A stretch of 54,909 nt of DNA from a virus (IMGVR_UViG_3300050132_000156:1-54909); one strand, 5' to 3'; counted from the stretch's first letter, positions 14,810-51,239 are shown. Notes: generated from the letters alone by a model not told the origin. Translations and numbers: made by a program.

Positions 14810-14875
14810 GTCTGGCCTCAAAGTCCTTGAGCCTCAATCGTTTCTCCCCTATGCTGAAGGTGAGGTATTGCGTCC

Positions 14876-15238
14876 ATGGCTCTCAACAAGATCCCGGTCC
14901 AGGGCTACCCTTTTTCCGGTTCGGTGAAACGCCAGCAGTGGCTTGGCGACCTGACTGGAAACAACAACTACCAGCAGGCCGGAGATGTGATCTACGCCCG
15001 GGATTTCGGGATGGGCGGTTTCGAGACGTTCGGAATCCCCTTTAGCGGGTATTCGAATTCGGGGACTTATTACGCTCGGGCGTATCCTCCGACGACCGCA
15101 TCGAACTACACCGAGACGTTTGCCCCGGTCTACAACAACGTCACGGTGCATTGGTACTACGCGGCCAACTCTGCCGAAGTCGCCAACAATGCGAACCTTT
15201 CGGCGGAAGTGATTCGGCTCGACCTGCGCGGCGTCTAG
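14876..15238 (+). CDS. Putative virion protein
   Basis: GAGG RBS; Asn/Tyr-rich; within the structural block. Confidence 0.6.
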   Translation: MALNKIPVQGYPFSGSVKRQQWLGDLTGNNNYQQAGDVIYARDFGMGGFETFGIPFSGYSNSGTYYARAYPPTTASNYTETFAPVYNNVTVHWYYAANSAEVANNANLSAEVIRLDLRGV

Positions 15239-15248
15239 GAGGCTCGCG

Positions 15249-16238: not shown

Positions 16239-16243
16239 AGACT

Positions 16244-17584
16244 ATGAAACAAATCATTGCAATTCTGTTTGTTGCTTGCGGGCTTCTGAGTGCGCAGGTG
16301 AATCCGCCGACCATCTGGCGTTCGTCCCGCACGACTCCGAGCGGGAACTGCGCTGCGGGGACGGGCGTCGAGACCATCCCCGGCGGCGTGCTCTACACCT
16401 GCCAGGCTGGCACGTGGGTTCAGATCTCAGGCGGCGGCGGGTCGAGCATCGCGCCCTTCACCACGGACGGGACGAACGTGACGCTGCCGAACGGCAACCT
16501 TTCGGTGGGGAATACGGTGCTTGATCCGGTGCAGGGAGTCAGCAACCCTGTGGCCGCCATGCTGCCAAAGTGGCGCCTAGCATTAGCCAATGTCAGGGCA
16601 GGCATTGCTGATGCCAACATTCTCTGTATGGGTGATTCAACGACAGCGGGAGCGGGGGGGCCGAATTCTGCTACAGTACCGCAACTTGATTCCGCCTGCT
16701 GGCAACTAGGGGTAATGTTGGCAACGGATGGCATACCCTGGGCTCCGGGGTTTTTGCCGATGGGCAACCCGGCTCACCCAGTCCATAACGCTCAGCTGAC
16801 ATATGGGACAGATTGGACGGACGCTACATTTGGGTTCTCTGGGTCATCGAGTTTAAAGACTACAACGGACGCATCCAACTTAGTGTTCACGCCCGCCGGT
16901 GGTTTCGCATATGACCGCTTTGACGTTTACTACGTTAGGAACACTGGGGATGGCACACTGACAATGACCGCTACGGGAGGCACGCCTGTTGTGCAATTAA
17001 CTGCTGGCACCGGCGCTCTGCTGAAGGTGACCGTGAGTGCAGCTACTGCCGCAACCAATAATACCCTGACAATCGTCCCAAGCAGTGGAACCGTTTACGT
17101 CTGGGGGATTGAGCCGTGGCTATCGACAACGAAGCGAGTACGAATAGGAAACGCAGGGCAGTATGGCACGACGAGTTCCCAGTGGGCTTTGACCGGTCCA
17201 TTCTATACTCCGGGTGCGGTAACCCTGTACTCTCCTAATTTATCTATCTGTTCACTCGGCATCAACGACGCGACGACCAGTGTATCGCCTGCCACGCTGC
17301 AAACTAATTTGCAGGCAATTATTACCTCTGCCGAAACCACAGGAGATGTGATGCTTTGGACAATGCCCCCATCCAGCGGATCTCCATACACGACAGTTGA
17401 GCCAACGTATCAGGCCGTATATGCGAGTCTCGCCACAACCAACAATGTTCCGCTGGTAGACATTTGGAAACGATTTGGGGGTGTGTGGAACTCATCGTGG
17501 ATGAACGATTTTACCCATCCAAATCTAGCGGGTTACTGGGATATTGCCAGCGCAATCTATAGGACTCTGCGGCAAGCGCAGTAG
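16244..17584 (+). CDS. SGNH/GDSL esterase-domain protein with signal-peptide-like N-terminus
   Basis: GDSTT block I, SLGIND block III, DFTHPN block V; MKQIIAILFVACGLLSAQ. Confidence 0.8.
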   Translation: MKQIIAILFVACGLLSAQVNPPTIWRSSRTTPSGNCAAGTGVETIPGGVLYTCQAGTWVQISGGGGSSIAPFTTDGTNVTLPNGNLSVGNTVLDPVQGVSNPVAAMLPKWRLALANVRAGIADANILCMGDSTTAGAGGPNSATVPQLDSACWQLGVMLATDGIPWAPGFLPMGNPAHPVHNAQLTYGTDWTDATFGFSGSSSLKTTTDASNLVFTPAGGFAYDRFDVYYVRNTGDGTLTMTATGGTPVVQLTAGTGALLKVTVSAATAATNNTLTIVPSSGTVYVWGIEPWLSTTKRVRIGNAGQYGTTSSQWALTGPFYTPGAVTLYSPNLSICSLGINDATTSVSPATLQTNLQAIITSAETTGDVMLWTMPPSSGSPYTTVEPTYQAVYASLATTNNVPLVDIWKRFGGVWNSSWMNDFTHPNLAGYWDIASAIYRTLRQAQ

Positions 17585-19105: not shown

Positions 19106-19375
19106 ATGAAGCCACTGTCCTGGAAGACGACCGTTTGCGGCATCATCACGGCGCTGGCGGGCTGGGTCGCATTCAGCCCTGAGATATTTCAGCACTGGCC
19201 GTGGGTTATCAGCCTGGCGAAGTACATCATGATCGGAGGTTTTGCTGGTTCCGGCATTCTCAGCAAGGATTACTCCCAGCACTCGACACAGGCCGAGGTG
19301 ACGCAGGCCACCGTGGACAAGTCTGCCGCCCTCAACGCGGCAGCCACGAAGGCCGCCAATGAAGGCGGAAAGTAA
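19106..19375 (+). CDS. Putative holin
   Basis: SWKTTVCGII...GILSKD, two TM segments, 89 aa. Confidence 0.6.
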   Translation: MKPLSWKTTVCGIITALAGWVAFSPEIFQHWPWVISLAKYIMIGGFAGSGILSKDYSQHSTQAEVTQATVDKSAALNAAATKAANEGGK

Positions 19376-19778
19376 ATTGAACCTCCCCCTCTCGGTCCCG
19401 GATACCGTCATCGCGGTTTTGGGATACGCATGTCTGAATTACGTACAGATCCCGCTGAACTTGACGGCGGAGCAAGAGACGTTCAAGTGGCTGGTCTCCA
19501 TCGCGGGAGGGCTCCTATTCTGCGGATTTCTGGCAGGCCGAATCTGGCGAGAGTTCGTCAGTTCCAGGAGTAAACTGGCAGCCGACGACATGCGGATGCG
19601 GTCGCACGACAAGCGCCTCCGCGCATTGGAGATGGAACGCGCGGCGCTGCGGGCGACTTTCGTGGCGTTGCTCGGACGCTTCGACATTGAGAAAACAAGG
19701 CTCTCGCAGATCAATGCGGAAATCGCCCGCTACGACGTGGATGAAGATCCGACCGACGACGGAACCGGTTCAAGTTAG
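19359..19778 (+). CDS. Two-TM protein with coiled-coil tail (holin/antiholin-like)
   Basis: Two hydrophobic segments followed by a charged coil. Confidence 0.5.
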   Translation: MKAESKLNLPLSVPDTVIAVLGYACLNYVQIPLNLTAEQETFKWLVSIAGGLLFCGFLAGRIWREFVSSRSKLAADDMRMRSHDKRLRALEMERAALRATFVALLGRFDIEKTRLSQINAEIARYDVDEDPTDDGTGSS

Positions 19779-19803
19779 TCCAAGTCGGGCGTAAACTATT
19801 GTC

Positions 19804-21156
19804 ATGGCGTATGCTTGGCAGACTCTCGCGGGCGCTCAGTCGGACCTCGCGGCGCGTCTGTATGACGCCGGGCAGCAGTGGTGGGGGCCGGACGAACTAA
19901 CCATCCGCATCGTTGAGGCCCTGCGGACCTGGAATGCCCTCACGTCGTTCTGGCGCTCCGACATGAGCCTGACCATGGCCTCCACGACGGTATGGTACGA
20001 CATCTCCGCAGCGACCGGCTCTCCGCGCCCGATGACCGTCACCGACAACGACCTGCTTCAGTCTATCGAATACAGCCTCGTGGAGCCTCCGACCGCAGCC
20101 TATCCGCTGGTCTGGACCGGAACCGATCAGTTCAACGTCAACGACATCCTGACTGCGATCCAGCGGCGGCGCGACGAAACTCTTTCGACGACGGGCTGCA
20201 CGGTGACACGCCAACTCGTCACGGCTCCGATGGGCGGGCGCATCTCTCTTCCCGACAACGTGATCGACATCCGGCGCGTGGCGTGGCTTCCGTCTGGGAT
20301 CATCTACAAGCCCACCGCTCTGCGGCAGGCCGATGCGATGTCGAAATCCTTCTACGACCGGGGCTGGATGGGAGCCGCCGCCGCGCCTCCGCGAACCTAC
20401 CTCCAAAGCTCCCAGCCTCCGCTTAGTTTCGACGTGGACCGCACGCCGCCGGTCGCGGGGAACTATGAGGTCATGGCGGTTGAGGCCGGCGCGGCGCTGG
20501 TCACTACGGCGCCCGCTGTGCTCGGGGTTCCCGACGACTGGGCTTGGGTCATCAAATTCGGAGCCTTGTCCGAATTGTTTGGCCTGGAGTCCGAGGCCAA
20601 GGACCAGATGCGCTCGGACTATTGCGCCTGGCGATACAAGCAGGGACTCGCCTTGATGATGGACGCTCCAGCGGTATTGAGCGCTCAAATAGGTAGTTCG
20701 ATCTGCGCCATCGACGCGGTTGCCAACGCCGACGACTTCAACCCTGGGTGGCAGGCATCTGTGCTCACGGGGTTGCCACGTAGCGTTTATCTGGCAGGGC
20801 AGAATATGCTCGCGCCGAGTTCTCCCTGGGTCAGCGGAATGACGCTCCAGGTAGTCCAGAACGCGCCCATCCCGTCCGTGTCGACCGATCCTATCCAGTT
20901 GGGCCGCGAGGACTACGCGGCGGTACTCGACGAGGCACAGCACCTCGCCACGCTTAGCCTGGGCGGGTCCGAGTTTATGGCGACGGTCGGGCTGCACAAG
21001 CGCTTCATCGAACGCGCGGCGCTCTACAATTCCAAACTCCTCGGTTTGGGCGACTACCCGCGTTCGATGTACGAGATCAGCCAACTCGAATCAGAGCGGG
21101 CCCCAGTCTACGGCGGCGTGAAGCCGCAGGAGGTGCTTGGTGGCGGAAACCAGTAA
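19804..21156 (+). CDS. Putative tail adaptor/tubular protein
   Basis: 450 aa, upstream of the large tail gene; function from position. Confidence 0.5.
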   Translation: MAYAWQTLAGAQSDLAARLYDAGQQWWGPDELTIRIVEALRTWNALTSFWRSDMSLTMASTTVWYDISAATGSPRPMTVTDNDLLQSIEYSLVEPPTAAYPLVWTGTDQFNVNDILTAIQRRRDETLSTTGCTVTRQLVTAPMGGRISLPDNVIDIRRVAWLPSGIIYKPTALRQADAMSKSFYDRGWMGAAAAPPRTYLQSSQPPLSFDVDRTPPVAGNYEVMAVEAGAALVTTAPAVLGVPDDWAWVIKFGALSELFGLESEAKDQMRSDYCAWRYKQGLALMMDAPAVLSAQIGSSICAIDAVANADDFNPGWQASVLTGLPRSVYLAGQNMLAPSSPWVSGMTLQVVQNAPIPSVSTDPIQLGREDYAAVLDEAQHLATLSLGGSEFMATVGLHKRFIERAALYNSKLLGLGDYPRSMYEISQLESERAPVYGGVKPQEVLGGGNQ

Positions 21157-24100
21157 CCCGGTTGCAATTCGTTTTGCGTTTGGTGGGATGAACCTACGCG
21201 ACGTGGCGGACGCGCTCCCTTCCGGCAAATTCTCCATGGGGCAGAACATCCGCGACACGGCAGCCGGCTCGATTCGCACGCGACCCGGCTACGTCCCTGC
21301 ATTCTCGACGGGCAACAATGCCATTACGGACATCCGCTCCTACGCCACGCTGGAAACGGACAATAAGCCCCGATTCCTGGCACGCGACACCGCCGGTGAG
21401 GTCTGGCTGGACAGCGACATGAGCGTCGTCACGCTTGGCGGAAACAACCATGGTGCGGGCGTGCGCATGATTCCGTTCCGGCCGTCCTCCAGCCCGCAGT
21501 CGTGGATGTATGTCGTCGATCAGGGCGACTACCAGAAGATTTCCGCGCCCGACGCGAACAACGCCGTGACCGTCCAGAAGGTCGGCATCGCCGAGCCGCA
21601 GTTCCAGTGTGAGGCGGCTCCATTGACCCTGGCGTATACGGACTTCTCCGCACCCGCAAACAACTGGACTCCCGGTGGCACCGTCGCTACGCCCACAGAC
21701 GAGAACCGGACCACGGACACGGCGGGATCTGTCCTCACGGACCCGATCAACTCGAACCGTTCCAGCGTCCAGGTCTCCACTACGGAAGCCTACGTGATCG
21801 GGCAGACCGTGAGCTTCGGGGCGAACAATAACAACAAGGCTGCGGTGATACAGGATGTCCTGCCGCCGGCCTCCAACGTCTCCCTGCAGTCGGTCTATTA
21901 CTTCGCGGGGAACAACGGAACGTGTTTGGTCGTTCCCTCGCAACTCCCGGTAGGGCAGGCCTCGGTAGTAAATCAGCTCGGCTACCTGCGCCGCGGCGCG
22001 CTGATTAAGTTCAGCGGCAACAACGAAGTCGCGTTCGTGCAGAGCGTCACGGTCGGCCCGGACGGCTCGCAGTGCGTGCAGACGGCGACTGTGGGCGCTC
22101 ACAATTCGAGCGAAACGATCGTTGGGCTCCCGACCATCGTAGTGGATGGAGCCGTTGCCGCGGCTTCTTCCGTGCTCAGCGTGGACGTGAACACGACAGC
22201 CACGCCGGGCATCGGGACATTGCTCCAGACCTTCGCCACGAACCCGTTCTCCAAGCCCATGGGCACGGGCGGTCCGCTGCCGCAGCAGGACGACTACATC
22301 CACTTCTCCGTGAATGTGTCGGACTACACACAAGTCCTGGAGATTGACTTGCGTTTCAACGTCGATCCGGTCGATACGACGGTAACGCAGAACTACTACC
22401 AATGGGTCGTCACGCAGGACATCCTGGCCGCGGCCGTGGCTGGGGCGTCTTCGAGTATTCAGACATCGGCAGCGACCTCTACATCGGGATCGACCGGCGC
22501 GCTGGCCTCCTTGCAGCAACAGCTCACGGAATTGCAGAGCCGGCTCTATCAAGTCCAGAACAACCAACCTGGACAATACTACGATGCCCCTGCGTATGTC
22601 AGGAGCGGCATCATCGCTGGCCTCCAGCAGGCGATCTCGTCCATCAATTCCCAGATCGCCTTCCTGTCCCCGAGCACGACAAGCACGAGCACAAGCGGCG
22701 GGGCGACCGCGGTAGCAGCGGAGCAGTGGGCGGAGATCATGATCCCGATCTCTTCGCTAACCCGCATCGGCGGAGACGCCTCACGTAGTCTGTCGGACTG
22801 CAGCGCGGTGCAAATACGCATCAACACGACCGGAGCGGGAACGGCGACGTGGCAGGCCGCAGCGTCCTACTCCCTGAACCAGGAGATCCTGGACGCCACC
22901 GGGCACACGCAGAAAACCATTACCGCCGGCGTGAGCGGGCTCGTCGTGCCCACATGGAACGACACGGGCGGGACCACGACGGACGGAACGGTCGTATGGG
23001 CGGATCAGGGCGTCGTGGCGGCCTCCACGGTCCTGCGCATCGGTTCGTTCTGGGTAGGCGGCGGCAGCGAGCCCGACACGGGCAGTGGCGGGGCTCCGTA
23101 TCGTTACCGCGTGGTCCCTTACTCCAGCCTGACCGGAGCGAAGGGCAACCCGTCGCCCGACATGAGATACGGCGTGACGCCGCGGCGCCAGCAGGTCACG
23201 GTGTATCTTCCGGACTCGACCTACGACCCGCAGATCGACACATGGATGATCGAGCGTTACGGCGGGACGGTCACGAGTTGGCGCTTCATTGGGAGTTGTC
23301 TCTCCGCGGACCAGGCCTTCATCGACAAGTATTTCGACGACACGGCAGAAGGCGGCTCGCTCATGGAGACCGACAACTTCGAGCCGTGGCCGAGCGTCGA
23401 TGTCCCATACAGCCCTTCGACGGTTCCCGGTTCTTCGCCGCTCACGTTCGGAGTGACCGTCTGGGGTACGGTGGTCGTCGCCACCAATGCGAGCGGGGTG
23501 TGGCCCGCCACGATCGACAACTGGTTGCCCGGGACGCTCATCCAGGTGGCCTACCAGAGTGTCTACACGCTGCGTGCCCGGCCAACGAAACTGACCGACT
23601 ATTCGTACCTATTCCAGATTGAGGAGTGCGGCGGCTTTCAGAACCAAATCTTCGGATTCATCGTGGCCGAGCCAATCGTCGCCCGGGCCTTCGCTCCAGG
23701 ATCATGGGGACCGGACGCGCAGGGAACGGTCTTTGCGGTGCTAGATCCGATGCGGCCGGGCGTGGTGAACTTCTCGAAGCAGTACAATCCGGACGCCTGC
23801 CAGAACGCCGCCCTGGAACTCGTGCCGCCATCGGAGCCGCTGATCGGCGGGGAGGTTCTGGCCGGGCTGAGCCTTGTCTCTTCCAGCGCGCGCTGGTGGG
23901 CGCTGTATCCGGCCTTCCAGTCGGCGCAACTCTATGAGCCGATCGAGCAGACGGTCGGGCGCGGGCTGGTGAGTCCCTTCGGAATCTGCACGGACGGGGC
24001 AAAGATCTACTTCTGGGCCAAGGATTGCATCGCCTCCCATTCCGGTGGCGGGTACGAAGACCTAACCTCCGAGGACTTGGAACCCCTGTTCCCGCACGAC

Positions 24101-40520: not shown

Positions 40521-41933
40521 GTGATTCCGACGCTCTGGCCCGACCAGGAACTCGACTTGAACCGCGTCCGCGCCTCCATGCGAGAGCACCGCGCCGTCGC
40601 CCTGGTGCGGCCCTGCGGATCGGGCAAAGGGACCATCGCGAGTTACGTGGTTCACTCTGCCGAGTCGCGCGGCAAGCGAGTCATCTTCGCCGTTGATAGG
40701 CGCGTGCTGGTTCACGACATGAGCATGCGCTTGGACCGGCTCGGGATCGAACACGGCGTCATCATGGGCGACGACAAGCGCCGCAAGCCCTGGCTCGGCA
40801 CTCACGTCGCGAGCATCGACACGCTCACCCGCCGCGAGGTTCTGCCGGTCGCGGATTTGATCATCATCGACGAAACGCACAAGGCGGTCGCTCCGAAGTG
40901 GAAAAAGGTTCTCGACCGCTACCCGCAGGCCAAGATTCTCGGTCTAACGGCGACTCCGATCCGGCTGGACGGGCGCGGCTTGGAAGAGATCTACGATGAC
41001 ATGGTGGTCGGCCCCTCGGTCGAGGACTTACTCAATCTGAAACTGATCGTGCCGAGCGTCGTGTTCGCGCCGCCGCGCCAGATCAACACGAGCAAGGCCA
41101 AGAAGACTGGCGGCGACTACAACAGCGCCGCCCTGGCCCATGTGTGCGACAACGCCAAACTGGTCGGCGACATCGTGGCCCACTGGCAGAAGCATGCCTC
41201 CGAGCGCAAGACGGCGTTCTTCGGAGTGGACTGCAAGCACGCCCGCAACACGGCCGAGCAGTTCCGCTGCGCCGGCGTCGAGACGGCCTACGTGGACGCG
41301 GACACGCCCGACGATGAGCGGCAGAAGATATGGGATGACTTCGACCGTGGAACGTGTCGGATTATTTGTAGCGTCGGCGTGATTGGAATCGGATGGGACC
41401 ACTCGATCTGTTCGTGCATCATCGACGGCTGCCCGACACTCTCGATCGAGCGGTTCCTGCAACGCATTGGGCGCGGATCAAGGACGCATCCGGGCAAGAC
41501 AAACTTCCTCATTCTCGACCACGCGGGCAACACGCACAGGCACGGATTCTATGAAGACCCGCGTTGCTGGAGTTTAACCGGCAAGGCGCTCAAGGAAGAA
41601 GAAGAAAAGTCCGAGTCGCCCTACACCTGCGTGGTCTGCCGGGCGGTATTCCGTAGAAAGGGTGCTCTCGCTTGCCCATATTGCGGCGCTGCAATACAGG
41701 TGAAGCATAGAGACATCACGGTAGTAAAGGGAGACTTGGAAGAACTCAGCAGGACTCAAACGGCTGAAAAATGGAGAGCGCTGACTCCAGAGAAAAGAGA
41801 AATAATGTACCGGCGGATGGTCATCACTGCGGAGCAGCGGGGATATAGTTCCAAGTGGCCGATGGCTAGGTATCACGCATTGTTTAATGAATGGCCGAGG
41901 AGAGAATGGAATGCCAGACAAACCTACGCTTGA
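40521..41933 (+). CDS. Superfamily 2 DEAD/DEAH helicase with Zn ribbon
   Basis: GSGKGT, IIDETH, LTATP, QRIGRGSR, CVVC..CPYC. Confidence 0.9.
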   Translation: MIPTLWPDQELDLNRVRASMREHRAVALVRPCGSGKGTIASYVVHSAESRGKRVIFAVDRRVLVHDMSMRLDRLGIEHGVIMGDDKRRKPWLGTHVASIDTLTRREVLPVADLIIIDETHKAVAPKWKKVLDRYPQAKILGLTATPIRLDGRGLEEIYDDMVVGPSVEDLLNLKLIVPSVVFAPPRQINTSKAKKTGGDYNSAALAHVCDNAKLVGDIVAHWQKHASERKTAFFGVDCKHARNTAEQFRCAGVETAYVDADTPDDERQKIWDDFDRGTCRIICSVGVIGIGWDHSICSCIIDGCPTLSIERFLQRIGRGSRTHPGKTNFLILDHAGNTHRHGFYEDPRCWSLTGKALKEEEEKSESPYTCVVCRAVFRRKGALACPYCGAAIQVKHRDITVVKGDLEELSRTQTAEKWRALTPEKREIMYRRMVITAEQRGYSSKWPMARYHALFNEWPRREWNARQTYA

Positions 41934-42795
41934 ACTAATGTCCGGGTTGAAGATCGGGGCATACACCCTGCTGAGAAAAATAGTAGACCCTGAGTCTCCT
42001 TCCCGATGGGAATGTCGATGCGATTGCGGCAACATCCGCACTGTAGCTTCGGGTAATCTAAGGGCTAGAAATAGCCTGTCTTGCGGATGCCTGCGAGGCG
42101 AGTTACGGGTGAAAACGAGGCATACGCACGGAGAGGCCGGCGTAAGATCCTCCCAGAGAACAGCAGAATACCGGGCTTGGGCTAACATCAAAAACAGATG
42201 TCACAACGAGCTTACACCAGCCTATGCTTATTACGGCGCTCGTGGAATCGCCGTTTGCGACAAATGGAGGAATAGCTACGAGTCGTTTCTGGCGGACATG
42301 GGCAGGCGGCCATCCCCAAGTCACAGCATAGACCGCATCGACAACGACCGAGGATACGAGCCGGGAAACTGCCGTTGGGCCACCCTTTCGGAGCAGCGCC
42401 GGAATACGAGGGCAGTCCAGAGATTTGAACACGGCGGCGACAAGCTGATGGCTATCGAGTGGCAGGAGAAAACTGGGCTTCGCTCCAAGATCATCAGACG
42501 CCGTCTGATCCGAGGTTGGTCGATAGAGAAGGCGGTTACGACTCCGAAGCTTGAGCCCGGAGAGGGTCACGCGAGTCAGTACGTCAGCAATAGGAACTCT
42601 TCTGGGTTCAAGGGCGTTTCCACTTCAGATAAAAAGAATAAACCATGGCGTGCCGTCGTTCGGCAGGATGGCCGGCAGTCCTTCGTCGGTTACTATGCCA
42701 CGGCAGAAGAAGCCGCGCGAGCTTACGACGCGAGAGCTATCTCCATCTACGGAGAGCACGCACTGCTCAACTTCCCCGAGGCGGTGCCCGCATGA
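41911..42795 (+). CDS. HNH homing endonuclease with AP2 domain
   Basis: WECRCDCG, SIDRIDNDRGYEPGNCRWAT, SGFKGVS...AEEAARAYD. Confidence 0.88.
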   Translation: MPDKPTLELMSGLKIGAYTLLRKIVDPESPSRWECRCDCGNIRTVASGNLRARNSLSCGCLRGELRVKTRHTHGEAGVRSSQRTAEYRAWANIKNRCHNELTPAYAYYGARGIAVCDKWRNSYESFLADMGRRPSPSHSIDRIDNDRGYEPGNCRWATLSEQRRNTRAVQRFEHGGDKLMAIEWQEKTGLRSKIIRRRLIRGWSIEKAVTTPKLEPGEGHASQYVSNRNSSGFKGVSTSDKKNKPWRAVVRQDGRQSFVGYYATAEEAARAYDARAISIYGEHALLNFPEAVPA

Positions 42796-43145
42796 AGCCC
42801 GCCGACGTCCTCACCAACGAGCTGCGCGTGGCGCTGTCGGCCAAGTATGGCCGTGATGCCTTCCTCCAGCGCGTCAACGTGATCGCCATGGCGACCACGA
42901 CGCGCGGCATGGTGCGGAGCTGCCAGCCGGGCACAGCGGACCTGCTCGGCGTCGTCAAGTGCTACGCCGTGGCAATCGAGGTCAAGGCGGGTAAGGACCG
43001 GCAGCGGGAGTCGCAACGCAATTTCCAGGAGTGCTGGGAACGCGCCGGCGGGATTTACCTGATCTGCCGGGATGTGGAAGAGACGCTGAAGCAACTCCAG
43101 GGGATCATGGATTCAGTCAAGGACATGCTGGCAAGGCACACATGA
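42792..43145 (+). CDS. VRR-NUC-type nuclease / resolvase
   Basis: PGTADLLG..AIEVKAGKDRQRESQ..F...WERAGG. Confidence 0.8.
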   Translation: MKPADVLTNELRVALSAKYGRDAFLQRVNVIAMATTTRGMVRSCQPGTADLLGVVKCYAVAIEVKAGKDRQRESQRNFQECWERAGGIYLICRDVEETLKQLQGIMDSVKDMLARHT

Positions 43146-43810
43146 GGCAGCCCCGCCAGATGGTCGTCCCCGACCCAGCCACAATCGAGCAGATCAAACA
43201 CTCGATTGACCTGCGTGCGTTCGTGGCCGAGTACATCCCGCTGCGTAAGCAGGGCGCGACCTCCAAGGGAGTCTGCCCGTTCCACTCTGAGACGGTCGGC
43301 TCTTTCGTTGTGCATGAAGACTATTTCAAATGCTTCGGTTGCGGCGCCGCGGGCGACGTTATTTCATTCGTCCAGCAGTTCGACCGCATGAACTTCATGG
43401 AGGCTCTGCGCAGCCTGGCCGAGTACACCGGCATCGCGTTGCAAACAGTGGACCGCAAGACCGCACTCCGCCGCCAGGAGTTCATCCGCCGCGAGGCCGA
43501 GTGCGTGTGGCATTTCTGGGGCGCGCTGTATTTGGAGTTTGAGACCCGCAAGCGCCGGGCGTATGCTTGGGTTCAGGTCGTGGCTGGAACGTGCCTCGAA
43601 GATGCATTCCTGCTGGACCTAGAAGAAAATGCGAAAGCTATGTTTCTGATCGAGACGGCATCGGCTCGTCAGTTGCTCGACATTTACCGCGAGCAGGTCA
43701 ACTCGGGCCACACCGTCCAGGTGCGCTGCGAAGACCCGCTCGACCGGCCGGGAATTTTCCTAAGATCTATCCGAACGGAGAACTACAGTGGAATTCACGC
43801 AAGCTGTTAA
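43142..43810 (+). CDS. CHC2 zinc-finger protein (DnaG Zn-binding domain, no TOPRIM)
   Basis: CPFHSETVGSF...FKCFGCGAAGDVISFV. Confidence 0.85.
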   Translation: MRQPRQMVVPDPATIEQIKHSIDLRAFVAEYIPLRKQGATSKGVCPFHSETVGSFVVHEDYFKCFGCGAAGDVISFVQQFDRMNFMEALRSLAEYTGIALQTVDRKTALRRQEFIRREAECVWHFWGALYLEFETRKRRAYAWVQVVAGTCLEDAFLLDLEENAKAMFLIETASARQLLDIYREQVNSGHTVQVRCEDPLDRPGIFLRSIRTENYSGIHASC

Positions 43811-44096: not shown

Positions 44097-45575
44097 ATGA
44101 AGCCGGATCCAGTCAAGCGCGAACTCGCGTCCGAAGTCGCCCCGTCGAACGTCACGGGCAGCGCTACCTTTGCCGCCCAGCAGGTCATTGCCGGCAAGGA
44201 CTCGCAGGCTGCGTTCAAGCCGGAGTTCATCCAGCGCTGCGCCCTACTGACAACCGAGGAGCTATGGGATGTCCGCCTGCTGCTGGCCCGGGCCTTCCCC
44301 AAGGACGGCTTCGGGCCGCGAGGTGAGTTCTCGCGCCGCGTCAAGGCCGCTCAGATCGACATGGACCCGATCGAGCGCCGGGCGGGTTGGACCGCAGGGC
44401 TGCTGCTTAGCGACAACGGAGCGGCCAAGCCGGTGCTCGCCAACGCCATCCTGGCGCTGCAGTTGGCGCCGGAGTGGTCCGGAGTGGTCGGATTCGACGA
44501 GTTTTCGCAGCGTTTACGCATTCTCAAGGCGGCGCCCTGGGAGCGCTCGGACTGCGACTGGCAGGACCGGGACGACACCGAGTTGTCGAACTGGCTGCAG
44601 CACCACGGCATCATGGTCTCCTCGGCGCTAGCGCACGAGGCCGCGGCGAAGGCTGGCTTCGAGAATAGCTACCATCCTGTCAGGGCGTACCTCAAGAGCC
44701 TGGAGCCGAGCGATGAGGTGCTGATCAACGGCTGGCTGGGCCAGTTCCTCGGCGTGAAGGCGGCCGACGATGAACAGGAGAGGTACGTCGCCGCGGTGGG
44801 GCGCAAGTGGCTGATCTCCGCCGTGGCGCGCATCTTCGAGCCGGGCTGCAAAGCCGACTGCTGCCTGCTAATCGAAGGAAAAACGGGAGTGGGCAAGTCC
44901 ACCACTCTATCAACTCTGGGCTCGCCGTGGTTCGCGGATTCACTGATGGTGCTCGGCAATCACGATTTTTACCAGACGATCCAGGGCAAGTGGATCATAG
45001 AGATCGCCGATTTGGCCGGGTACAACAAAGCGGAGATCGAGATGGTCAAGTCAGTATTCTCATCGTCGTGCGACACCTACCGCAAGTCCTACGGCCGCAA
45101 CGCCGAGGACCATCCCCGCCAGTGTGTATTTGCCTGCACCACCGAGGCCGACAATTGGAGCAAGGAAGCCTCGGCCCGCCGGTTCTGGCCGGTGGCCGCC
45201 GGCACGGTGGATATGATGGGCCTCAAGAATGCCAAGCACCAGCTCTGGGCCGAGGCCGTGCGCGCCTACAAAGACGGCGAGGCCTGGTATCTGGATGAAC
45301 CCGAACTGGTCAAGGCATCTCAGTCGGAGCAGTTGGACCGCTGGGAGCGGCACCCCTGGCTCAAGGCAATCGGGGAATATGTCGCCCAACTCGGCGATAC
45401 GTGTTCTGAGGACATCCTCCGTTCGGCCATCACTAAGCCCCTGGAGCGGCAGACACGCGCCGACCAGATGGCGGTGGGCGGGTGCCTGCGGTTCCTGGGA
45501 TGGAGCAAGCGGAAGACAACGGTTGGCGGCGGCCGGAGCGTGCAGCGGTGGTATCCGCCGGATACGCTGGATTAG
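44097..45575 (+). CDS. VapE-family helicase/ATPase
   Basis: YHPVRAYL, WLISAVARIFEPGCKAD, EGKTGVGKST, PRQCVFACTT, RRFWPV, QLWAEAV. Confidence 0.9.
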   Translation: MKPDPVKRELASEVAPSNVTGSATFAAQQVIAGKDSQAAFKPEFIQRCALLTTEELWDVRLLLARAFPKDGFGPRGEFSRRVKAAQIDMDPIERRAGWTAGLLLSDNGAAKPVLANAILALQLAPEWSGVVGFDEFSQRLRILKAAPWERSDCDWQDRDDTELSNWLQHHGIMVSSALAHEAAAKAGFENSYHPVRAYLKSLEPSDEVLINGWLGQFLGVKAADDEQERYVAAVGRKWLISAVARIFEPGCKADCCLLIEGKTGVGKSTTLSTLGSPWFADSLMVLGNHDFYQTIQGKWIIEIADLAGYNKAEIEMVKSVFSSSCDTYRKSYGRNAEDHPRQCVFACTTEADNWSKEASARRFWPVAAGTVDMMGLKNAKHQLWAEAVRAYKDGEAWYLDEPELVKASQSEQLDRWERHPWLKAIGEYVAQLGDTCSEDILRSAITKPLERQTRADQMAVGGCLRFLGWSKRKTTVGGGRSVQRWYPPDTLD

Positions 45576-45808
45576 GCCCACTCCCTTACCATTTCTTTCG
45601 GGTTCTCGATCCCCGCCTTCCGGCAGCAGTCGAAGCACCGCGCGATCGCCCGCTTCAGGGTGCTGCGGTTGCACGGACATCTCGGAACGTCCGCCTTGAA
45701 CTTGGCGCAGCCGGAGAGCGCGATCGTGCCGGCGCGCAGCCCGACGCCGCGGGCCTTTCCGCCGAGACGGCCGAGCGCCACGGCCGCCGGATTTTTTTCG
45801 TGTGTCAT
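45572..45808 (-). CDS. Small basic protein (KNPAAVALGRLGGK motif)
   Basis: GAGG RBS; basic, Cys-containing. Confidence 0.6.
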   Translation of the reverse strand: MTHEKNPAAVALGRLGGKARGVGLRAGTIALSGCAKFKADVPRCPCNRSTLKRAIARCFDCCRKAGIENPKEMVREWA

Positions 45809-45810
45809 GT

Positions 45811-46110
45811 TTACCTCTTCAGGTTCGCTATCAGGAGCGCGAGCACGACTGCCGCCAGGACCAGGAAGGTGAGGCGCCACCACGGCGTCATCTGGTCGTT
45901 TTTCCGCCCCGTCTCCCAGCTGACGAGGTTTTTCTGTTCGTCGAACGTCGCCTGGATGATCCGGCACAGGTCCACGCGCTCTTCGGGGAACAGCACGGCA
46001 TCACGCGCCACTTCCCACTCCGCCAGGATGCACATGGTGAGCAACACCGCCACCGGTGAGGCCAGCACGCGCGGCTCAGTTCCGCCTTTCAGGATTCGCT
46101 CAGCCCTCAT
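45811..46110 (-). CDS. Small membrane protein
   Basis: C-terminal TM segment. Confidence 0.5.
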   Translation of the reverse strand: MRAERILKGGTEPRVLASPVAVLLTMCILAEWEVARDAVLFPEERVDLCRIIQATFDEQKNLVSWETGRKNDQMTPWWRLTFLVLAAVVLALLIANLKR

Positions 46111-46342
46111 TTTCAGCCGTCCCTTCCGCGAACATCTCCAACTCGCCCTCTTCGAGGCTCTGTTCGTAGGCTTCCCGCGCCGCGAGCAACGCCCGCAGCC
46201 GGGCCCGGGCGTGCAGGGCATGCAGCCGCGCCGCCTTTTCCGCCGCCTCGCTCAGCAGCAGCGCCGGGATGATTTTCGTGAGCGCGTAGACCGTCGTCAG
46301 GATCGCCGCCGCGTATCCGCAGCCCGCCAGGAATTCGCTCAT
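46100..46342 (-). CDS. Small membrane protein
   Basis: GAGG RBS; N-terminal TM plus coil. Confidence 0.5.
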   Translation of the reverse strand: MSEFLAGCGYAAAILTTVYALTKIIPALLLSEAAEKAARLHALHARARLRALLAAREAYEQSLEEGELEMFAEGTAENEG

Positions 46343-46584
46343 TTCCAGTACCTCTCGATCACCAGCTCCGCGAACAGCGCCACAGCAACCGCCAGGCTGA
46401 ATAGCCCGGCGAGCCACAGCAGCCCGGCTTGCGCCCGCTGCGACAGGTTCGGACCTGCCCGCCGTTGCCGGAAGTGCAGCGCCTTTACGGGTTCTCTGGA
46501 CGCCGCAAACGGTTCGTCTGCCGCCATTCTCTTGAGCGCCGCCTTGGATGCCGCGCCCGCCCATGCCAAACCTTCGAGTTTCAC
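46339..46584 (-). CDS. Small membrane protein
   Basis: GGAGG RBS before GTG; C-terminal TM. Confidence 0.5.
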   Translation of the reverse strand: MKLEGLAWAGAASKAALKRMAADEPFAASREPVKALHFRQRRAGPNLSQRAQAGLLWLAGLFSLAVAVALFAELVIERYWK

Positions 46585-47348
46585 GGCTTCACCTCCGCCG
46601 GATAGAGCGCCTCGATAGGCTGTTCCGTGATGGCCCATTCCGCGATGGCAAAGAGGTTGAAGGCCTCCACCCACGCCTCCGCCCACGCCTCCACCGCCGC
46701 CTGCGCCGCCGCCGCCTCCCACGCCGCCGCCGCCGCCCTCGCCGCCGCCGCCGTGCGATCTTTTCCACTCAGCCAGCCGGTTGCCCGTTTTTTCCAGGCA
46801 ACTGAGGCTCGCGGCCAGGCGCAGCCGATTGCGAATCGCACGCGCTGCTCCGTTGTGATCTCCGGCAGTGGCAGCACTTCGACCGTCGTGAGCGCGCGGC
46901 AGCCGCATTTCAACGGCCCGTCGCGCTTGCCGATTTCGCCGCGGCACGACCAAAGCTGCGGGTTTTTCAGATTGGCGTGGATCGGGTTCAGCAGCACCGC
47001 CACGAGCGGATGCTCGTAGGCGTGGATCCAGGATGCCGAGCACAGCGGGCCATCGGCCGGCCCTTTCGCCTCGTGCGTAATGCCCGCGCCCCATTGGGTA
47101 TGATTAGTTCCGTCGCCGTGGGTCTGACCCTGAGCGTCGGTGAGTTTGTAGAGAGTTACTGCAGCCATCGTGTTCCTTCCGCTATTGTTACGCCGTGCCG
47201 CCATCCTTTCCAGCGCCGCTTTGGAGGCCGCGCCGGACCACGCCAAACCTTCGAGTTTCACGGCTTCACCCCCTTGAATGTTGATCGTTCCGCCGCCGTG
47301 GGTCTGGCCCTGAGCGTCGGTGAGTTTATAGAGCGTCGCTTCTGCCAT
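46581..47348 (-). CDS. Ala-rich early protein with duplicated N-terminus (second start at 47168)
   Basis: TLYKLTDAQGQTHG occurs twice, each after a GGAAGGA RBS. Confidence 0.6.
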   Translation of the reverse strand: MAEATLYKLTDAQGQTHGGGTINIQGGEAVKLEGLAWSGAASKAALERMAARRNNSGRNTMAAVTLYKLTDAQGQTHGDGTNHTQWGAGITHEAKGPADGPLCSASWIHAYEHPLVAVLLNPIHANLKNPQLWSCRGEIGKRDGPLKCGCRALTTVEVLPLPEITTEQRVRFAIGCAWPRASVAWKKRATGWLSGKDRTAAAARAAAAAWEAAAAQAAVEAWAEAWVEAFNLFAIAEWAITEQPIEALYPAEVKP

Positions 47349-47404
47349 GCGTGTTCCTTCCGTTATTTTGCCGCTATTCCGCCATCGGGTCAAGTGGAAA
47401 TCGG

Positions 47405-47674
47405 TTAACTGCCAGATCTATCCCAGAACATCGTCGCGTCGTCATAGGGCGTGCCGTAATCGCCCGCGCCCCGTTGCGTTTTCCGCTCGGAAAGCATAGC
47501 CTCCGCCATGCTATAAGCCATTTCCGCCATTTCAGACGGGAGCGCCTTGATTTCAGGGTTGGCGCAGAGTCCAGTCAGGGCGTGTTTCGCAAACAAGTCC
47601 AAGCTGGCCCAGTAAGCCTCCAATGCCTGCCGCCGCCGCAGTTCGACCCAATCTTCTTTTTTTAAGTCGGTCAT
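47405..47674 (-). CDS. Hypothetical protein
   Basis: DLFAKHALTGLCAN...AYSMAEAMLSER, a pattern common in small phage proteins. Confidence 0.6.
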   Translation of the reverse strand: MTDLKKEDWVELRRRQALEAYWASLDLFAKHALTGLCANPEIKALPSEMAEMAYSMAEAMLSERKTQRGAGDYGTPYDDATMFWDRSGS

Positions 47675-47738
47675 TGTCGCTTTCCGCCTTTCGTCTTTCG
47701 CTCGAACAGTTTCCGCCGGACATGCGGCACGAAGGCCG

Positions 47739-48050
47739 CTACTGCGCTGCTACGGCTTCGCCGCGATGCAGCCACAAGTTCGCCATCTCCGGAGTGCCCT
47801 CCAGTTCCGCAGAAACCTCCCAGCCACCCTTGCCGCCGAGAATGCCACTGCTGAGATTGATGGCCTTGATTGCTTTCACGCCGGTGGCATTGTAGCCGCA
47901 GCCACCAACACAGTACCCCACATGGCCGCGATAGCCGAGAATGGCTACCTTAAGGGCTTCTTCTTCGGTTGCTCCCTCGCCTACCAAGGTGGCTCCGCCG
48001 CCGAACGCGTCGAGCGAATGCGCTCTGAATTTCCAAACCATGTTTCCCAT
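47739..48050 (-). CDS. Hypothetical protein
   Basis: GGAGGAG RBS. Confidence 0.55.
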   Translation of the reverse strand: MGNMVWKFRAHSLDAFGGGATLVGEGATEEEALKVAILGYRGHVGYCVGGCGYNATGVKAIKAINLSSGILGGKGGWEVSAELEGTPEMANLWLHRGEAVAAQ

Positions 48051-48068
48051 TTTGTTTCTCCTCCCGGT

Positions 48069-48350
48069 TTAAGCCTCCGGGTGGCTCTTTCGCTCGAACA
48101 ATTTCCGCCCGTCGAGGACCGTATAGCGCCAGGCCGGATGTGCCGCCTTTTCCGCCAGCACCGGCCCGTCGTAGCAGTCCCCGCAAATCAGTTCGTGGAT
48201 TTTCCGCCCTTCCACCCCGGGCTCGACCTCGACCGCCTCGACGCTTACCGCCCGGCTCAGGCACAGCGGCGCCGCGCAGCGCCCGCAGAAGGGCTGACTT
48301 GTTACGCGCCGGCGCAGGGTGTCGTGAGCCGTGAGGGTGAGCCGGATCAT
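48069..48350 (-). CDS. Zn-finger protein
   Basis: CGRC...CGDC; coupled to the upstream gene. Confidence 0.55.
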   Translation of the reverse strand: MIRLTLTAHDTLRRRVTSQPFCGRCAAPLCLSRAVSVEAVEVEPGVEGRKIHELICGDCYDGPVLAEKAAHPAWRYTVLDGRKLFERKSHPEA

Positions 48351-48946
48351 GCGACCGCGATCCGTTCCGGCCTGAAGTAAGTTCCGCCGTATTGAATCGC
48401 CTCTGCAATGTGTTTCGCCTGTATCCGCTCGGAGGCTCCGAGGTTCGCAATCACGCGCGCCACGCGCAGCGCTTTCTGATATTGCCCGTTCGACATCGCA
48501 AGCCGGCGCAGCGCCATTTCCGCCGTTCGGCGCGCCATGCCATCCAATTCGAGGCCCAGGTGATTTTTCCCGAACTCCACGGCCGCGGCTACCCGCTTTT
48601 CCCGCCAGGTGTCGTCATCGGGCGCGTTCATCTGCCGCCCGAGCATATCCGCCGCGGTCGCCATGCAGGTTTCGATAATCAAGTCGAATTCTTCCGCCTC
48701 ACGCTCAAGCCGCCGGTACCAGCGGTAGAGCAGCCGCGCGCTGCAGGTACACTCGCGCCCCGGGTTCATGTAGTTTCCGCACGGGCAGGAATCCCGCTCG
48801 GCGCTTTCCACGTCGGGGAACGCCGCCCGCAGCGTGGTCTTGGAGCTGCCGCGCGGCCCGACCAGCATGACTTTCAGGCCGCCCGCTTGCGCCACTTCGA
48901 AGGCGCGTTTCGCCGTCGCGTTTCCTCGGATCTCGTATTGTTTCAT
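48347..48946 (-). CDS. Internally deleted ComM/YifB (Mg-chelatase-related) AAA+ homologue
   Basis: IRGNATAKRAFEVAQAGG..VGPRGSSKT, CPCG..CTCS, LRVARVIANL...HIAEAIQY. Confidence 0.8.
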   Translation of the reverse strand: MKQYEIRGNATAKRAFEVAQAGGLKVMLVGPRGSSKTTLRAAFPDVESAERDSCPCGNYMNPGRECTCSARLLYRWYRRLEREAEEFDLIIETCMATAADMLGRQMNAPDDDTWREKRVAAAVEFGKNHLGLELDGMARRTAEMALRRLAMSNGQYQKALRVARVIANLGASERIQAKHIAEAIQYGGTYFRPERIAVA

Positions 48947-49019
48947 CGTGTTTCCGCCTTTCCTCGTATCATCGGCACGTGCGGCCGCCCGCTGCGACAG
49001 GCGGCCTGGCTTGCAGACG

Positions 49020-49241
49020 CTACTTTTCCGCCCGCCGCTTTTCCCGCTGCAGTTTCGCGTGGAAGTAGCGCGCCCGCGATCCGTTCGCGTTGCTCGGCCG
49101 CCTGTAGTGGCAGTAGTTCGCCTCTACCAGCAGAACTTCCACTTGCGCCGTGTTCAGGGTGTGAAAGTCCACCGCTATGATGCCCGACAGGTCCATCGGT
49201 GGTACTTCCCGCGTTTCCGCCGTTCGCTGTGTCTGTTTCAT
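49020..49241 (-). CDS. Hypothetical protein
   Basis: GGGAG RBS; YRRPSNANGSRARYF. Confidence 0.55.
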   Translation of the reverse strand: MKQTQRTAETREVPPMDLSGIIAVDFHTLNTAQVEVLLVEANYCHYRRPSNANGSRARYFHAKLQREKRRAEK

Positions 49242-49401
49242 GGTTGCTATGCTCCCAGTACGCAGAACGCCTCACTGCCGTAGTCGTTTGTTTTTCCACT
49301 CGGCAGGGTGAGCTTGAAAAGTGTGTAGGCCATGGCTAAACTCCCTTTCGGTCAATTTCCGCACTCGTGCCCGCTGCGACGGGCACTGATTCGGGGACTG
49401 A

Positions 49402-49725
49402 TCAGACACTCACGTATTGCCCGCGCGCCACCGCGAACGTGGAGAACCGCAATTCCTGCAAGAGCGTGAAGTTTGCGTCTCTCCGCGCTTCGAAGTGGAA
49501 CGCGGACATGCCCGTGTCGATTTCCTGAATGCCCCACGTGGCGCAAGGGTATGTGTTGCCCGTGGACATGTTCTTGGCGATGCAAGTGCACCGCGAATCA
49601 GGCGCGCGCCTGTATCCGAGCGCTTTTAGTTCGGCGTCTAGCGTCGCAATGGACACTTGGCGGCCGCCATATTCAAGCGTCCGCTTCACTTCCAGCGTCA
49701 ATCCGATGCTCTTGTACTCTGGCAT
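49402..49725 (-). CDS. Hypothetical protein
   Basis: AGGAG RBS before ATG 49725. Confidence 0.6.
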   Translation of the reverse strand: MPEYKSIGLTLEVKRTLEYGGRQVSIATLDAELKALGYRRAPDSRCTCIAKNMSTGNTYPCATWGIQEIDTGMSAFHFEARRDANFTLLQELRFSTFAVARGQYVSV

Positions 49726-49733
49726 GGTGACTC

Positions 49734-50294
49734 CTAGACGATCGCCCATATCTCGCGCAACGTCCGACTGGTCTTGAAGTACAGCGTGACGTTGCCGTGG
49801 TCGTTTACAACAGCCACTTCACCACGAAACCATACAGGGACTTCGGAGAGGTCCGAAACCTTGATATTCTCGACGTCAAAGTCCCAAACGTTGCCACCAT
49901 TGACAAACGTCGGAACCGAGAACTCTTCGTCCCATTCTTCACTCAACCAAAACCCATAGTCGGAACCATCGCCGGGATGCGCGCCAAAGTAGAAATAAGG
50001 TGCGGCGTACTCGCCGAGTGCATCGCAGAGCGATTCGAGGTCGTACTCGGCGTCTTCGGACTCGTAATAGCCGATTTCGGCGTCGTCTTCCGTCTCTCCA
50101 CGTAACTCAATCCGTCTCTCAATCTCGCGGGCCAGCTTCGCGTGCTGGCGTCTGGACTTAGCTGGCAGGATGCCAGTCTGGCGCGCCAGACCTTGCAGCT
50201 CGTAACAGAACGTCGGGATCAAGTCCTCTTCGCGCATGGTGGCGCAAGAGACTGAACCCATTGGGTAATTGGCAGTTCGTTTGCCGGACTTCAT
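49734..50294 (-). CDS. Acidic early protein (YFGAHPGDGSDYGFW)
   Basis: AGGAG RBS; first gene after the leftward promoter. Confidence 0.7.
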   Translation of the reverse strand: MKSGKRTANYPMGSVSCATMREEDLIPTFCYELQGLARQTGILPAKSRRQHAKLAREIERRIELRGETEDDAEIGYYESEDAEYDLESLCDALGEYAAPYFYFGAHPGDGSDYGFWLSEEWDEEFSVPTFVNGGNVWDFDVENIKVSDLSEVPVWFRGEVAVVNDHGNVTLYFKTSRTLREIWAIV

Positions 50295-50334: not shown

Positions 50335-50363
50335 ACTATGCGCTCAATCCGCTATCGCGTCAA
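50335..50363 (-). promoter_or_regulatory. Leftward promoter of the putative early block
   Basis: Minus strand TTGACG, 17 nt, CATAGT. Confidence 0.6.
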
Positions 50364-50429: not shown

Positions 50430-50557
50430 GTGTGGTACTTTCTACCACACCTTTGGCAGTTAATACCACGCAAGGTGTGGCTTGATTGACACACTGTGGT
50501 AGAACGTACCACGCTGTATGTGTCAAACGGACCACGCTGGCAAGTGCCGCAAGGTGT
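50430..50557. promoter_or_regulatory. Operator-like palindrome cluster (GTGGTA-N5-TACCAC x2)
   Basis: Palindromes at 50432-50448 and 50496-50512; TTGACACA/TGTGTCAA flank the second. Confidence 0.6.
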
Positions 50558-51239
50558 AGTGAGAGATGAGGGTATGAAACCACGTTCGAGGTGTACAGCG
50601 GCTTCGCTGTGCGCGCGCGGAGACCTCGACAGCTCGCCGGATCGCCCGACGGCCGCAAGAATCAGGCGGAAACAGTCAACTTCTGATAATCACTATTACG
50701 TTAACTCCGACATGATAGCGGATTGTCCTAGCAAGTCGTTTGTAATCAACACTTGCAAGTGATAACGCGGAAATACGCGCCCATCTGGACCGCGATAATG
50801 GAGCTGATGCGCGACTATGCCGGCGTTTGAACGGGTTTGAACGGTGTTATCAGAAGTCAGGCGCGCCGCGGCCGCCGGCATAGTCCGACCGATCGGTTGT
50901 CCGATATGGTGATCGAGCGTAACAGTGGACAGATGCCCGCCGTCCCATTCCAAACGCCCTCTTGCATTTTCTGGTAGCTATATTTTTTGGGCCCGGCGCC
51001 ACGGAAAGAGCCGGAAGGCAGGATGCCTGCCTGTTCCATAAACGTGTCTGAGTTCCTCCCGCCTAGTTCCGTGCTCTCTTCCGGACTGATGCGCCTTGAT
51101 CGTAGCTGGCGCTTGACACTCCAGCCTGCTGGGTCTACTCTGGATCTGCGTGTTCCCCGCCGTTGGGTTGAGTTCCGGATCATTCTTCGGCCCGTCTGGT
51201 GATTCTGCCAGCCGGGCCGAAGTTGCGTCTGTGGCTCAG

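Follow-up and report, generated by a model that had tools for sequence, protein, structure and literature searches.

An exact, strand-specific octamer array in a leftward operon of a phage likely to infect Acidobacteriota

The locus and the octamer array

The viral record IMGVR_UViG_3300050132_000156 (linear, 54,909 bp, 83% complete by CheckV estimate), which was analysed over its whole length and is referred to here as the window, contains thirteen identical and identically oriented copies of an octamer within a block of small leftward genes. The word reads GGCGGAAA on the minus strand, which is the sense strand of these genes, and TTTCCGCC on the plus strand. Structural genes occupy ~0.4-33 kb and are read rightward, as is a replication and recombination module at 36-45.6 kb that encodes a YqaJ exonuclease, a Gp3-like protein, an SMC-like ATPase, a helicase, a protein with a DnaG-type zinc finger and a VapE helicase. 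Based on open reading frames (ORFs) and GC content at third codon positions (GC3), a block of ~11 small genes runs leftward on the minus strand from 50294 down to 45572 and converges on the VapE gene, which ends at 45575. A non-coding region of 1.2 kb (50.3-51.5 kb) lies between the divergent gene sets, and further rightward genes are present beyond it.

The host is likely a member of the Acidobacteriota, because the 383-amino-acid (aa) capsid protein resembles (31% identity) the major head protein of the Tunturiibacter phages Tunturi_1 and Tunturi_2, which have an acidobacterial host, and because the closest cellular homologues of two window proteins come from Bryobacterales and other Acidobacteriota. 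Near-identical DNA was identified in peat and permafrost metagenome runs (20 entries from 18 studies), and no RNA run was listed among them. Pieces from the four DNA runs compared (X5, X8, X9 and X10) have 0-1 differences relative to the window and, being near-identical, are uninformative on conservation.

The array is confined to positions 45756-49221 and starts 181 nucleotides (nt) past the VapE stop. All copies are on the minus strand. Numbered from the left, copy 1 (45756-45763) encodes G-G-K in gene 45572-45808, whereas G-R-K is encoded by copy 2 (45901-45908) in gene 45811-46110 and by copies 7 (48102-48109) and 9 (48201-48208) in gene 48069-48350. Six copies encode A-E: copy 3 (46237-46244) in gene 46100-46342, copy 4 (47521-47528) in gene 47405-47674, copy 8 (48149-48156) in gene 48069-48350, copy 10 (48517-48524) in a YifB/ComM-like gene, where the A-E-M residues are kept in five of seven homologues, and copies 12 (49025-49032) and 13 (49214-49221), which fall near the end and at residue 7, respectively, of gene 49020-49241. 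These ten gene-internal copies make use of all three reading frames. The remaining three of the 13 are intergenic. Copy 5 (47681-47688) has the ATG of gene 47405-47674 6 nt downstream, copy 11 (48951-48958) has the ATG of gene 48347-48946 4 nt downstream, and copy 6 (47710-47717) lies within a 24-nt duplicate of the surroundings of copy 7. Only copies 5 and 11 are at ribosome-binding distance from a start codon.

Spacings between copies are irregular (29-1284 nt over 3.5 kb) and the density of the array is 3.75 copies/kb. All 13 copies of the block are co-oriented with the leftward genes, and the gene-internal copies of the window (counted as 16) are without exception on the sense strand. A flank consensus and logo hold no information outside the 8-mer, and no second promoter-like element was found downstream of the word. 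Copies 6 and 7 (47710 and 48102) are the sole pair with related flanks; all other pairwise flank identity is at random level. The thirteen positions had been listed in an original prediction made from the sequence alone, and all were confirmed, as were the eight one-mismatch copies and the four copies of opposite orientation that it reported; a full count of the window adds none to these four. Three of them (starting at 19364, 21142 and 21437, within 19364-21444) read GGCGGAAA on the plus strand, which is the sense strand of the rightward genes there, and represent the background level. The fourth (50665-50672, plus strand) is a lone copy in the 1.2-kb non-coding region.

Over-representation, coding and exactness

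In the window as a whole the word occurs 17 times, as compared with 3.07 +/- 1.85 times (maximum 8) in 100 dinucleotide shuffles. Base composition predicts 0.19 copies in the 4.7-kb block, which is close to the rough value of 0.1 per 3.5 kb given in the original prediction. On the minus strand of the block, GGCGGAAA is the commonest 8-mer and the top outlier under a second-order Markov model (13 copies versus 1.44 expected, P=4.8e-9). No other non-repetitive, strand-specific 8-mer of the window has at least 6 copies in any 4 kb together with a small P. Markov models of orders 1-3 give expectations of 0.5-3.3 versus the 13 copies observed (0/500 for each), and a model of order 4 gives 6.3 (P=0.012). 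As background, distant loci with VapE (2.46 Mb) contain 77 copies, and 0.04-0.08 copies/kb were counted in five other sets that comprise 3.27 Mb of phage and Acidobacteriota DNA. The maximum on one strand in any 3.5 kb of these 3.27 Mb is three copies.

Codon-shuffled controls, the refutation test named in the original prediction, fail to reproduce the count, and coding does not explain the copies. Shuffling of codon order leads to an expectation of 0.74 copies in genes, and 0/2000 shuffles reach the observed 10. Synonymous shuffling within genes gives 3.30 (maximum 9; 0/2000 reach 10). Back-translation gives 0.90 copies with the codon and junction preferences of the rest of the genome and 2.39 with the preferences of the block itself, and in neither case do any of 3000 trials reach 10. 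We also considered the four-residue amino-acid contexts that are able to encode the word and compared the number possible with the number realised. In the block, 10 of 15 such contexts are realised, versus 4 of 41 in the other genes (Fisher P=5.5e-5), and word-capable contexts are three times denser in the block than elsewhere. Thus, both the order of amino acids and the choice of codons are bent towards the word.

Enrichment is restricted to the exact form, with 13 copies versus 1.52 expected. One-mismatch forms (13 versus 11.8, P=0.37) and two-mismatch forms (55 versus 55.7) occur at the expected frequency, and the antisense strand of the block has 0, 0 and 11 exact, one-mismatch and two-mismatch copies, respectively. 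We conclude that the array is a selected, exact-match, strand-specific cis-word and not a by-product of coding.

A different word in a second phage

The first gene of the leftward operon (49734-50294, minus strand) encodes a 186-aa protein and contains no copy of the word. The protein belongs to a widespread phage family (557 homologues, with Atlas clusters mostly viral) whose function is not known. Homologues are encoded at 14 viral loci, with the highest identity (59%) at L422, where the GC content (0.61) is like that of the window. L422 is part of G307, a complete genome of 63,561 bp with a 127-nt terminal repeat, and the TerL, portal and capsid proteins of G307 share 27%, 26% and 29% identity with those of the window. 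In G307, too, the first gene leads a leftward operon, and its position with respect to the structural genes is as in the window. It is the only gene common to both operons; the remaining operon genes are unrelated.

Downstream of the first gene, the sense strand of the G307 operon carries 14 copies of GGCACAA in 4.4 kb. Genome-wide there are 16 copies on the operon-sense strand and five on the other, with three and two for the reversed word, and L422 has 16 matches versus 2.83 +/- 1.63 in shuffles. As in the window, the exact form stands out, with 14 copies versus 0.81 expected, one-mismatch forms at 16 versus 11.3, two-mismatch forms at 62 versus 80.8, and no antisense copy. Of the contexts able to encode GGCACAA, 11/17 are realised in the operon versus 6/97 elsewhere (P=1.7e-7). 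All three frames are used (A-Q, H-K and G-T-[T/I/N]), and three of the 14 copies abut start codons. Eight copies are found in a gene for a tyrosine integrase (Pfam E=3.9e-23), where they include rare ACA codons. The window is not enriched in GGCACAA, nor is G307 in GGCGGAAA. The two phages also share a layout: the word is missing from the first ~1 kb of the operon, and copies extend to its distal end. Elsewhere in G307, a 260-nt tandem hexamer array (GTCGGG, GTCGCG and GTCGTG) is present on the minus strand at 12311-12570.

Other relatives and viral collections

The other 13 loci with a first-gene homologue carry an AAAGGAG ribosome-binding word (low-GC relatives), iteron-like arrays, coding tandem repeats or no over-represented word. 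AAAGGAG is the top over-represented sense-strand word of the operons in L426-L428. In L424 and L425 a 40-nt palindromic element precedes every gene; this conserved element of ~40 nt, with the palindrome CCAAAGCGCTTTGG, is located at 6451-17320 just 5' of at least 8 consecutive start codons, including that of the first-gene homologue. The CCAAAGCGCTTTGG element is a phage-specific promoter- or operator-like unit. In Tunturi_1 (L420 and L421), the leftward early genes at 55-59 kb have CTGGGAGG (seen as TCTGGGAGGA) eight times in 4 kb of the sense strand and 15 times genome-wide.

The nearest genome by structural proteins is G308 (complete, 63,818 bp), with identities of 42% for TerL, 47% for portal and 59% for capsid. 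Its best word is an 8-mer with six copies, antisense in structural genes. G006, a viral genome with a short YifB-like gene, has 11 copies of the window's word in 41 kb. It was rejected because six copies are sense and five antisense and because the word does not rank among the top words of this genome. A scan of viral contigs for triple occurrences of the word returned at least 119 stretches; among the matches listed, most are tandem coding repeats or iteron arrays and none is like the window. Tight arrays of six to nine GGCGGAAA-centred iterons, spaced by ~20-33 bp and including inverted copies at one end, were identified in L189 (1806-2023) and L193 (814-1083), and also in L169, L200, L247 and L265. 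They occur at the 3' end of primase/helicase genes on unrelated GC-rich viral contigs and are probable replication origins.

Close relatives are known as proteins, with identities of 84-88% for VapE homologues, 85-88% for the YifB-like protein and 74-84% for the first gene. Protein and alignment scans of viral and metagenome contigs for DNA of close relatives recovered distant loci only. A 23-nt pattern from the block had no match, and neither did megablast against GenBank phages. A full-text literature search for the two words gave only primer-type matches among those listed, and a term search of the Tunturi phage paper (PMC11924767) found no mention of motifs, promoters or termini.

The word in candidate host genomes

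Genomes of candidate hosts comprised five from Bryobacterales/Terriglobia and 301 from Acidobacteriota (three of them, G030, G055 and G156, flagged as unpublished). The reversed word was used as a control, albeit a weak one, and densities and ratios were read from tables and refer to the rows checked. In the five Bryobacterales/Terriglobia genomes the word is 1.4-2.3 times as frequent as the reversed word. Across the 301 Acidobacteriota genomes, the top densities read are 0.21-0.27/kb, versus 3.75/kb in the block, and ratios range from <1 to ~4.4.

No strand polarity following replication was evident in the candidate hosts G001, G002 and G094. An apparent one-strand polarity on a G002 contig (46/46) was rejected because the full 400 kb has a strand ratio of 12:9; GC skew is absent there and gene orientation is balanced. 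In G094, where the word is dense and the ratio high, four contigs of ~100 kb have counts of 13:13, 14:10, 9:18 and 13:10. For the complete genome G001 we followed GGCGGAAAR (the word plus a purine). The first 100 of 249 matches show successive counts of 5+/17-, 32+/33- over 1.7 Mb and 13+/0-, a patchy pattern that, over the less than half of the genome covered, is neither two-replichore nor flat. The suggestion in the original prediction of a Chi-like signal of the host thus gains no support: the word is neither unusually frequent nor consistently polarised in the candidate hosts examined, and a related phage uses another word.

Operon genes and neighbouring features

The sense strand of the operon (45572-50294) has G at 0.34 and C at 0.28, and the block has a GC content of 0.61-0.66. 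The first gene is closely preceded by a sigma-70-like promoter match on the minus strand (TTGACG-17-CATAGT, 50335-50363; a match to consensus only). Two perfect palindromes, GTGGTA-N5-TACCAC, are located at 50432-50448 and 50496-50512, 64 bp apart and with a half-site at 50464. They are operator-like in sequence, unrelated to the octamer, and likely function as repressor operators. Given the promoter match and the two palindromes upstream, the block is probably an operator-controlled, early operon.

Gene 48347-48946 (minus strand) encodes the truncated YifB/ComM-like protein, which has 199 aa. Retained in this 'mini' version are the first ~45 residues with the P-loop, a Cys-rich stretch and the C-terminal domain; the AAA+ core is absent. 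Its homologues (54-88% identity) are equally short, and the full-length cellular relatives are mostly from Bryobacterales.

Nested recent duplications occur at 46400-47400, with units of 78-80 nt at 80-87% identity, and include a doubled N-terminal unit in a 270-aa ORF. A GCC/GCN-type run with a 12-nt period is present at 46663-46746, and the stretch 46760-47130 is ~10% diverged in other samples, the remainder being identical. Beyond the stop of gene 47739-48050, another frame reads a peptide that ends in RRKLFERKTKGGKRQ and a stop codon and copies the C-terminus GRKLFERK of gene 48069-48350 (window 47675-47738 versus 48086-48109). The RRKLFERKTKGGKRQ stretch may have arisen by duplication of a gene end or may mark a site of frameshifting. 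Contigs from other samples join across 45944>46048, 47393>47675 (with side 23) and 48970>50311; in the last of these, the first three operon genes are replaced by 6 letters. Each join is seen in a single contig, the joints are of weak support, and we regard them as a hint of gene-sized deletion variants.

In the replication module, a DnaG-type CHC2 zinc-finger protein (43031-43810, plus strand; Pfam E=1.4e-26) is encoded directly upstream of the VapE helicase. Thus, primase and helicase are separate genes. An ORF at 41887-42795 (plus strand) has a GC3 of 0.60 versus 0.75-0.85 for its neighbours and encodes an HNH motif and a C-terminal AP2 domain (Pfam E=7.6e-5, under the curated cut-off). It looks like a homing endonuclease gene inserted between the helicase gene and the next gene. 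No Rfam families and no tRNA were identified in the window, and no phage repressor was recognised either.

Interpretation

The original prediction of a polar nucleic-acid signal, as opposed to a by-product of coding, is supported by the enrichment of the exact word only, the selection at synonymous sites, the occurrence in three frames and in intergenic DNA, and the second phage with its own word. Of the more specific mechanisms that it named, stoperator-like and antiterminator-type sites may apply. The array is best filed with 'polar exact-word arrays'. The explanation that we favour, tentatively and at well short of even confidence, is that the word is recognised, in step with transcription of the operon, by a factor that is phage-specific and strict in its sequence requirement. 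The word itself is spread through the distal 3.6 kb of the leftward accessory operon. Its reader, which could be an endoribonuclease, a processing factor or an elongation-control factor, would act in the direction of transcription, most likely on the transcript or on the displaced non-template strand, and the distal early-left transcript would thereby get a fate of its own. Such a factor, presumably encoded by the phage, would work while the operon is transcribed or afterwards, and not on duplex DNA. Because a related phage uses a different word, a reader specific to the phage is more plausible than one supplied by the host. Given the exact-only enrichment and the hundreds of identical words in each host genome, a catalytic or base-pairing reader is favoured over a stoichiometric binder.

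Some known systems that act on transcripts or during transcription have features in common with the array. The T4 endoribonuclease RegB cuts the 4-nt word GGAG, mostly between genes, in early mRNAs, and lambda sib retroregulation acts on the distal PL operon, which ends in int. The array would be comparable to these in its short, exact, sense-strand word, in having some copies at ribosome-binding positions, and in its apparent association with distal early-left genes (including int in G307). Unlike that of RegB, however, an 8-nt specificity would be new. The ops element, recognised by RfaH-type NusG paralogues, has 12 nt, begins with GGCGG, is found once or twice in a leader and is read on the non-template strand. 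Restriction to one operon, a proposed sense-strand reading and an operon of seemingly accessory or foreign genes could all be likened to this system, but the array places 13 copies among the operon genes, and only the first five letters match, perhaps by chance. Start-associated words such as AAAGGAG and CTGGGAGG invite comparison because two of 13 copies in the window and three of 14 in G307 abut start codons. In contrast to ribosome-binding words, the other 11 of 13 copies are away from starts, and the octamer is not complementary to the usual anti-Shine-Dalgarno sequence.

Several observations weigh against a transcription-coupled reader. Pfam, PHROGs and NCBIfam place none of the block genes in an informative family and leave all but the truncated YifB/ComM-like protein unannotated, and no candidate reader or nuclease was found. 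Predicted RNA accessibility of the copies is equal to that of other GAAA-containing sites, and folds around the complementary copy at 50665 are not unusually stable (z = 0.05 and -0.55). The block would have to be a single early transcription unit. The sense-strand bias is by itself expected because the word is easily encoded in sense (A-E, G-R-K), and unrelated phages have it in genes for A/E/K-rich or G-G-N repeat proteins. Among the 14 first-gene loci (two of them alike), only L422 has such an array. G308 has no first gene, no block genes and no comparable word, and the CTGGGAGG word of Tunturi_1 is only an extended ribosome-binding word. Finally, two extra GGCACAA copies are located just past the G307 operon, antisense to a convergent gene, and are thus better suited to reading at the DNA level.

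At the DNA level, the copies could be sites in duplex DNA for a phage DNA-binding protein that silences the distal early-left genes, for example in a lysogen, in an orientation-dependent and stoperator-like manner; we consider this rather unlikely. The stoperators of Cluster A mycobacteriophages (L5, Bxb1) are 13-14 bp long, mostly intergenic and distributed genome-wide, and they match the operator at the early promoter. The array resembles them in its many asymmetric copies, all co-oriented with the genes of the block, in a word that differs between two related phages as stoperators do between immunity groups, and in its possible parallel to their action on lytic and early genes. Moreover, G307 is temperate, its integrase gene is inside the array, and its two copies past the operon are on the same DNA strand. 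Unlike stoperators, the array has only 7-8 informative bases with flanks devoid of information, 10 of 13 copies in genes, and a distribution limited to one block of one operon rather than the whole genome. The first 1 kb past the promoter is copy-free, and the promoter region has unrelated palindromes and no copy in operon orientation. One-mismatch forms are not enriched, and a stoichiometric binder would face the hundreds of identical words in the host genome. The two G307 copies beyond the operon would also fit a Chi-like or translocase-control word, whereby an end-processing enzyme (of the host RecBCD/AddAB type or a phage nuclease-helicase) moving rightward meets 13 oriented copies and stops degrading, so that concatemers or the entering end are protected. 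Chi (RecBCD/AddAB) and KOPS are exact, asymmetric, polar words of 5-8 nt that act in an all-or-none manner, and Chi is frequent in the host genome and skewed with replication. The array has the hallmarks of exactness and strict polarity, along with shortness, asymmetry and use of all reading frames, and there are only two places at which sense codons of minus-strand genes could spell the word, the leftward block being one. Unlike Chi, however, the word seems ordinary in the Acidobacteriota genomes considered above, which are those of candidate hosts only. It is clustered in one block with no enrichment in the rest of the window, and it is replaced by another word in a relative. On balance, this role appears improbable.

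We also give little credence to the absence of any function, in which case the array would be a by-product of odd composition (a purine-rich sense strand and A-ending codons), fast-evolving proteins rich in A, E, K, G and R, codon pairs and local duplications. Consistent with this, codon usage differs between the block and the rest of the genome, GCG, GAA, AAA and CGG being raised even outside the word (AAA 56% versus 19%), and GCG-GAA is also raised in A-E pairs that are unable to form the word (4/13 versus 6/57). The order-4 Markov expectation is appreciable, recent duplications occur in the region and account for one pair of copies, and coding yields the same word in unrelated phages. However, no null model reproduces the count, three copies are non-coding, the exact word alone is enriched, and it is the only such word in the genome. 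Furthermore, the pattern recurs with another word in the unrelated genes of G307, among them a conserved integrase gene where rare ACA codons are used. A cluster of targets for an asymmetric DNA adenine methyltransferase, serving as a methylation-sensing switch, is very unlikely. Clusters of GATC in oriC or P1 pac are methylation-sensing switches, recognition would be exact and asymmetric, and differences in the word between phages would track methyltransferase specificity. Neither word contains T, so the adenines are on one strand only, and the window does encode a DNA methyltransferase (12625-14142). But this enzyme has no match in G307 at E<=1e-6, and we know of no precedent for a cluster of asymmetric methylation sites across 3.5 kb of coding sequence. 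SF3 initiators such as P4 alpha act at short asymmetric repeats, and the start of the array just past the VapE stop might suggest a replication origin, with the copies as iterons or loading sites for the VapE-type (SF3) helicase and DnaG-type primase encoded next to it. The same word is the core of the tight arrays beside primase/helicase genes in L189 and L193. The copies in the window are, however, dispersed irregularly over 3.5 kb rather than within a few hundred bases, and no AT-rich unwinding element was seen in the block. This alternative is weakened further because G307 has an array and no VapE homologue and because the initiators of the L189/L193 type are unrelated to the VapE protein of the window. 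We consider an origin highly improbable.

To return to a phage-specific factor that reads the word with transcription, a broader formulation, which we put forward with the same reserve, is a phage cis-code. Some Acidobacteriota phages may each place an exact 7-8-nt word of their own, at intervals averaging ~300 nt, along the sense strand of the distal early-left operon, to be read by a phage-specific enzyme with 7-8-nt specificity. The cost would be paid in codon and amino-acid choice, even within the conserved integrase gene. The enzyme might be a self-targeting endoribonuclease, a reader of the non-template strand or a polar DNA processor, and the word would then constitute a private operon 'barcode' that sets timing or protection.

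Few signals have the strength to reshape coding sequence; Chi, KOPS, stoperators and ops belong to these, and the study of each revealed a mechanism. The two phages described here, which are distantly related and whose likely host phylum has hardly been studied, have operon-limited arrays of different exact words with a like signature, in that about two-thirds of encodable contexts are realised and near-matches are not enriched. The comparison of possible with realised contexts is applicable to any viral collection. A phage-specific reader, if it exists, would be a new nucleic-acid enzyme or regulator with 7-8-nt specificity, and the arrays would represent a new means by which phages keep accessory early genes distinct.

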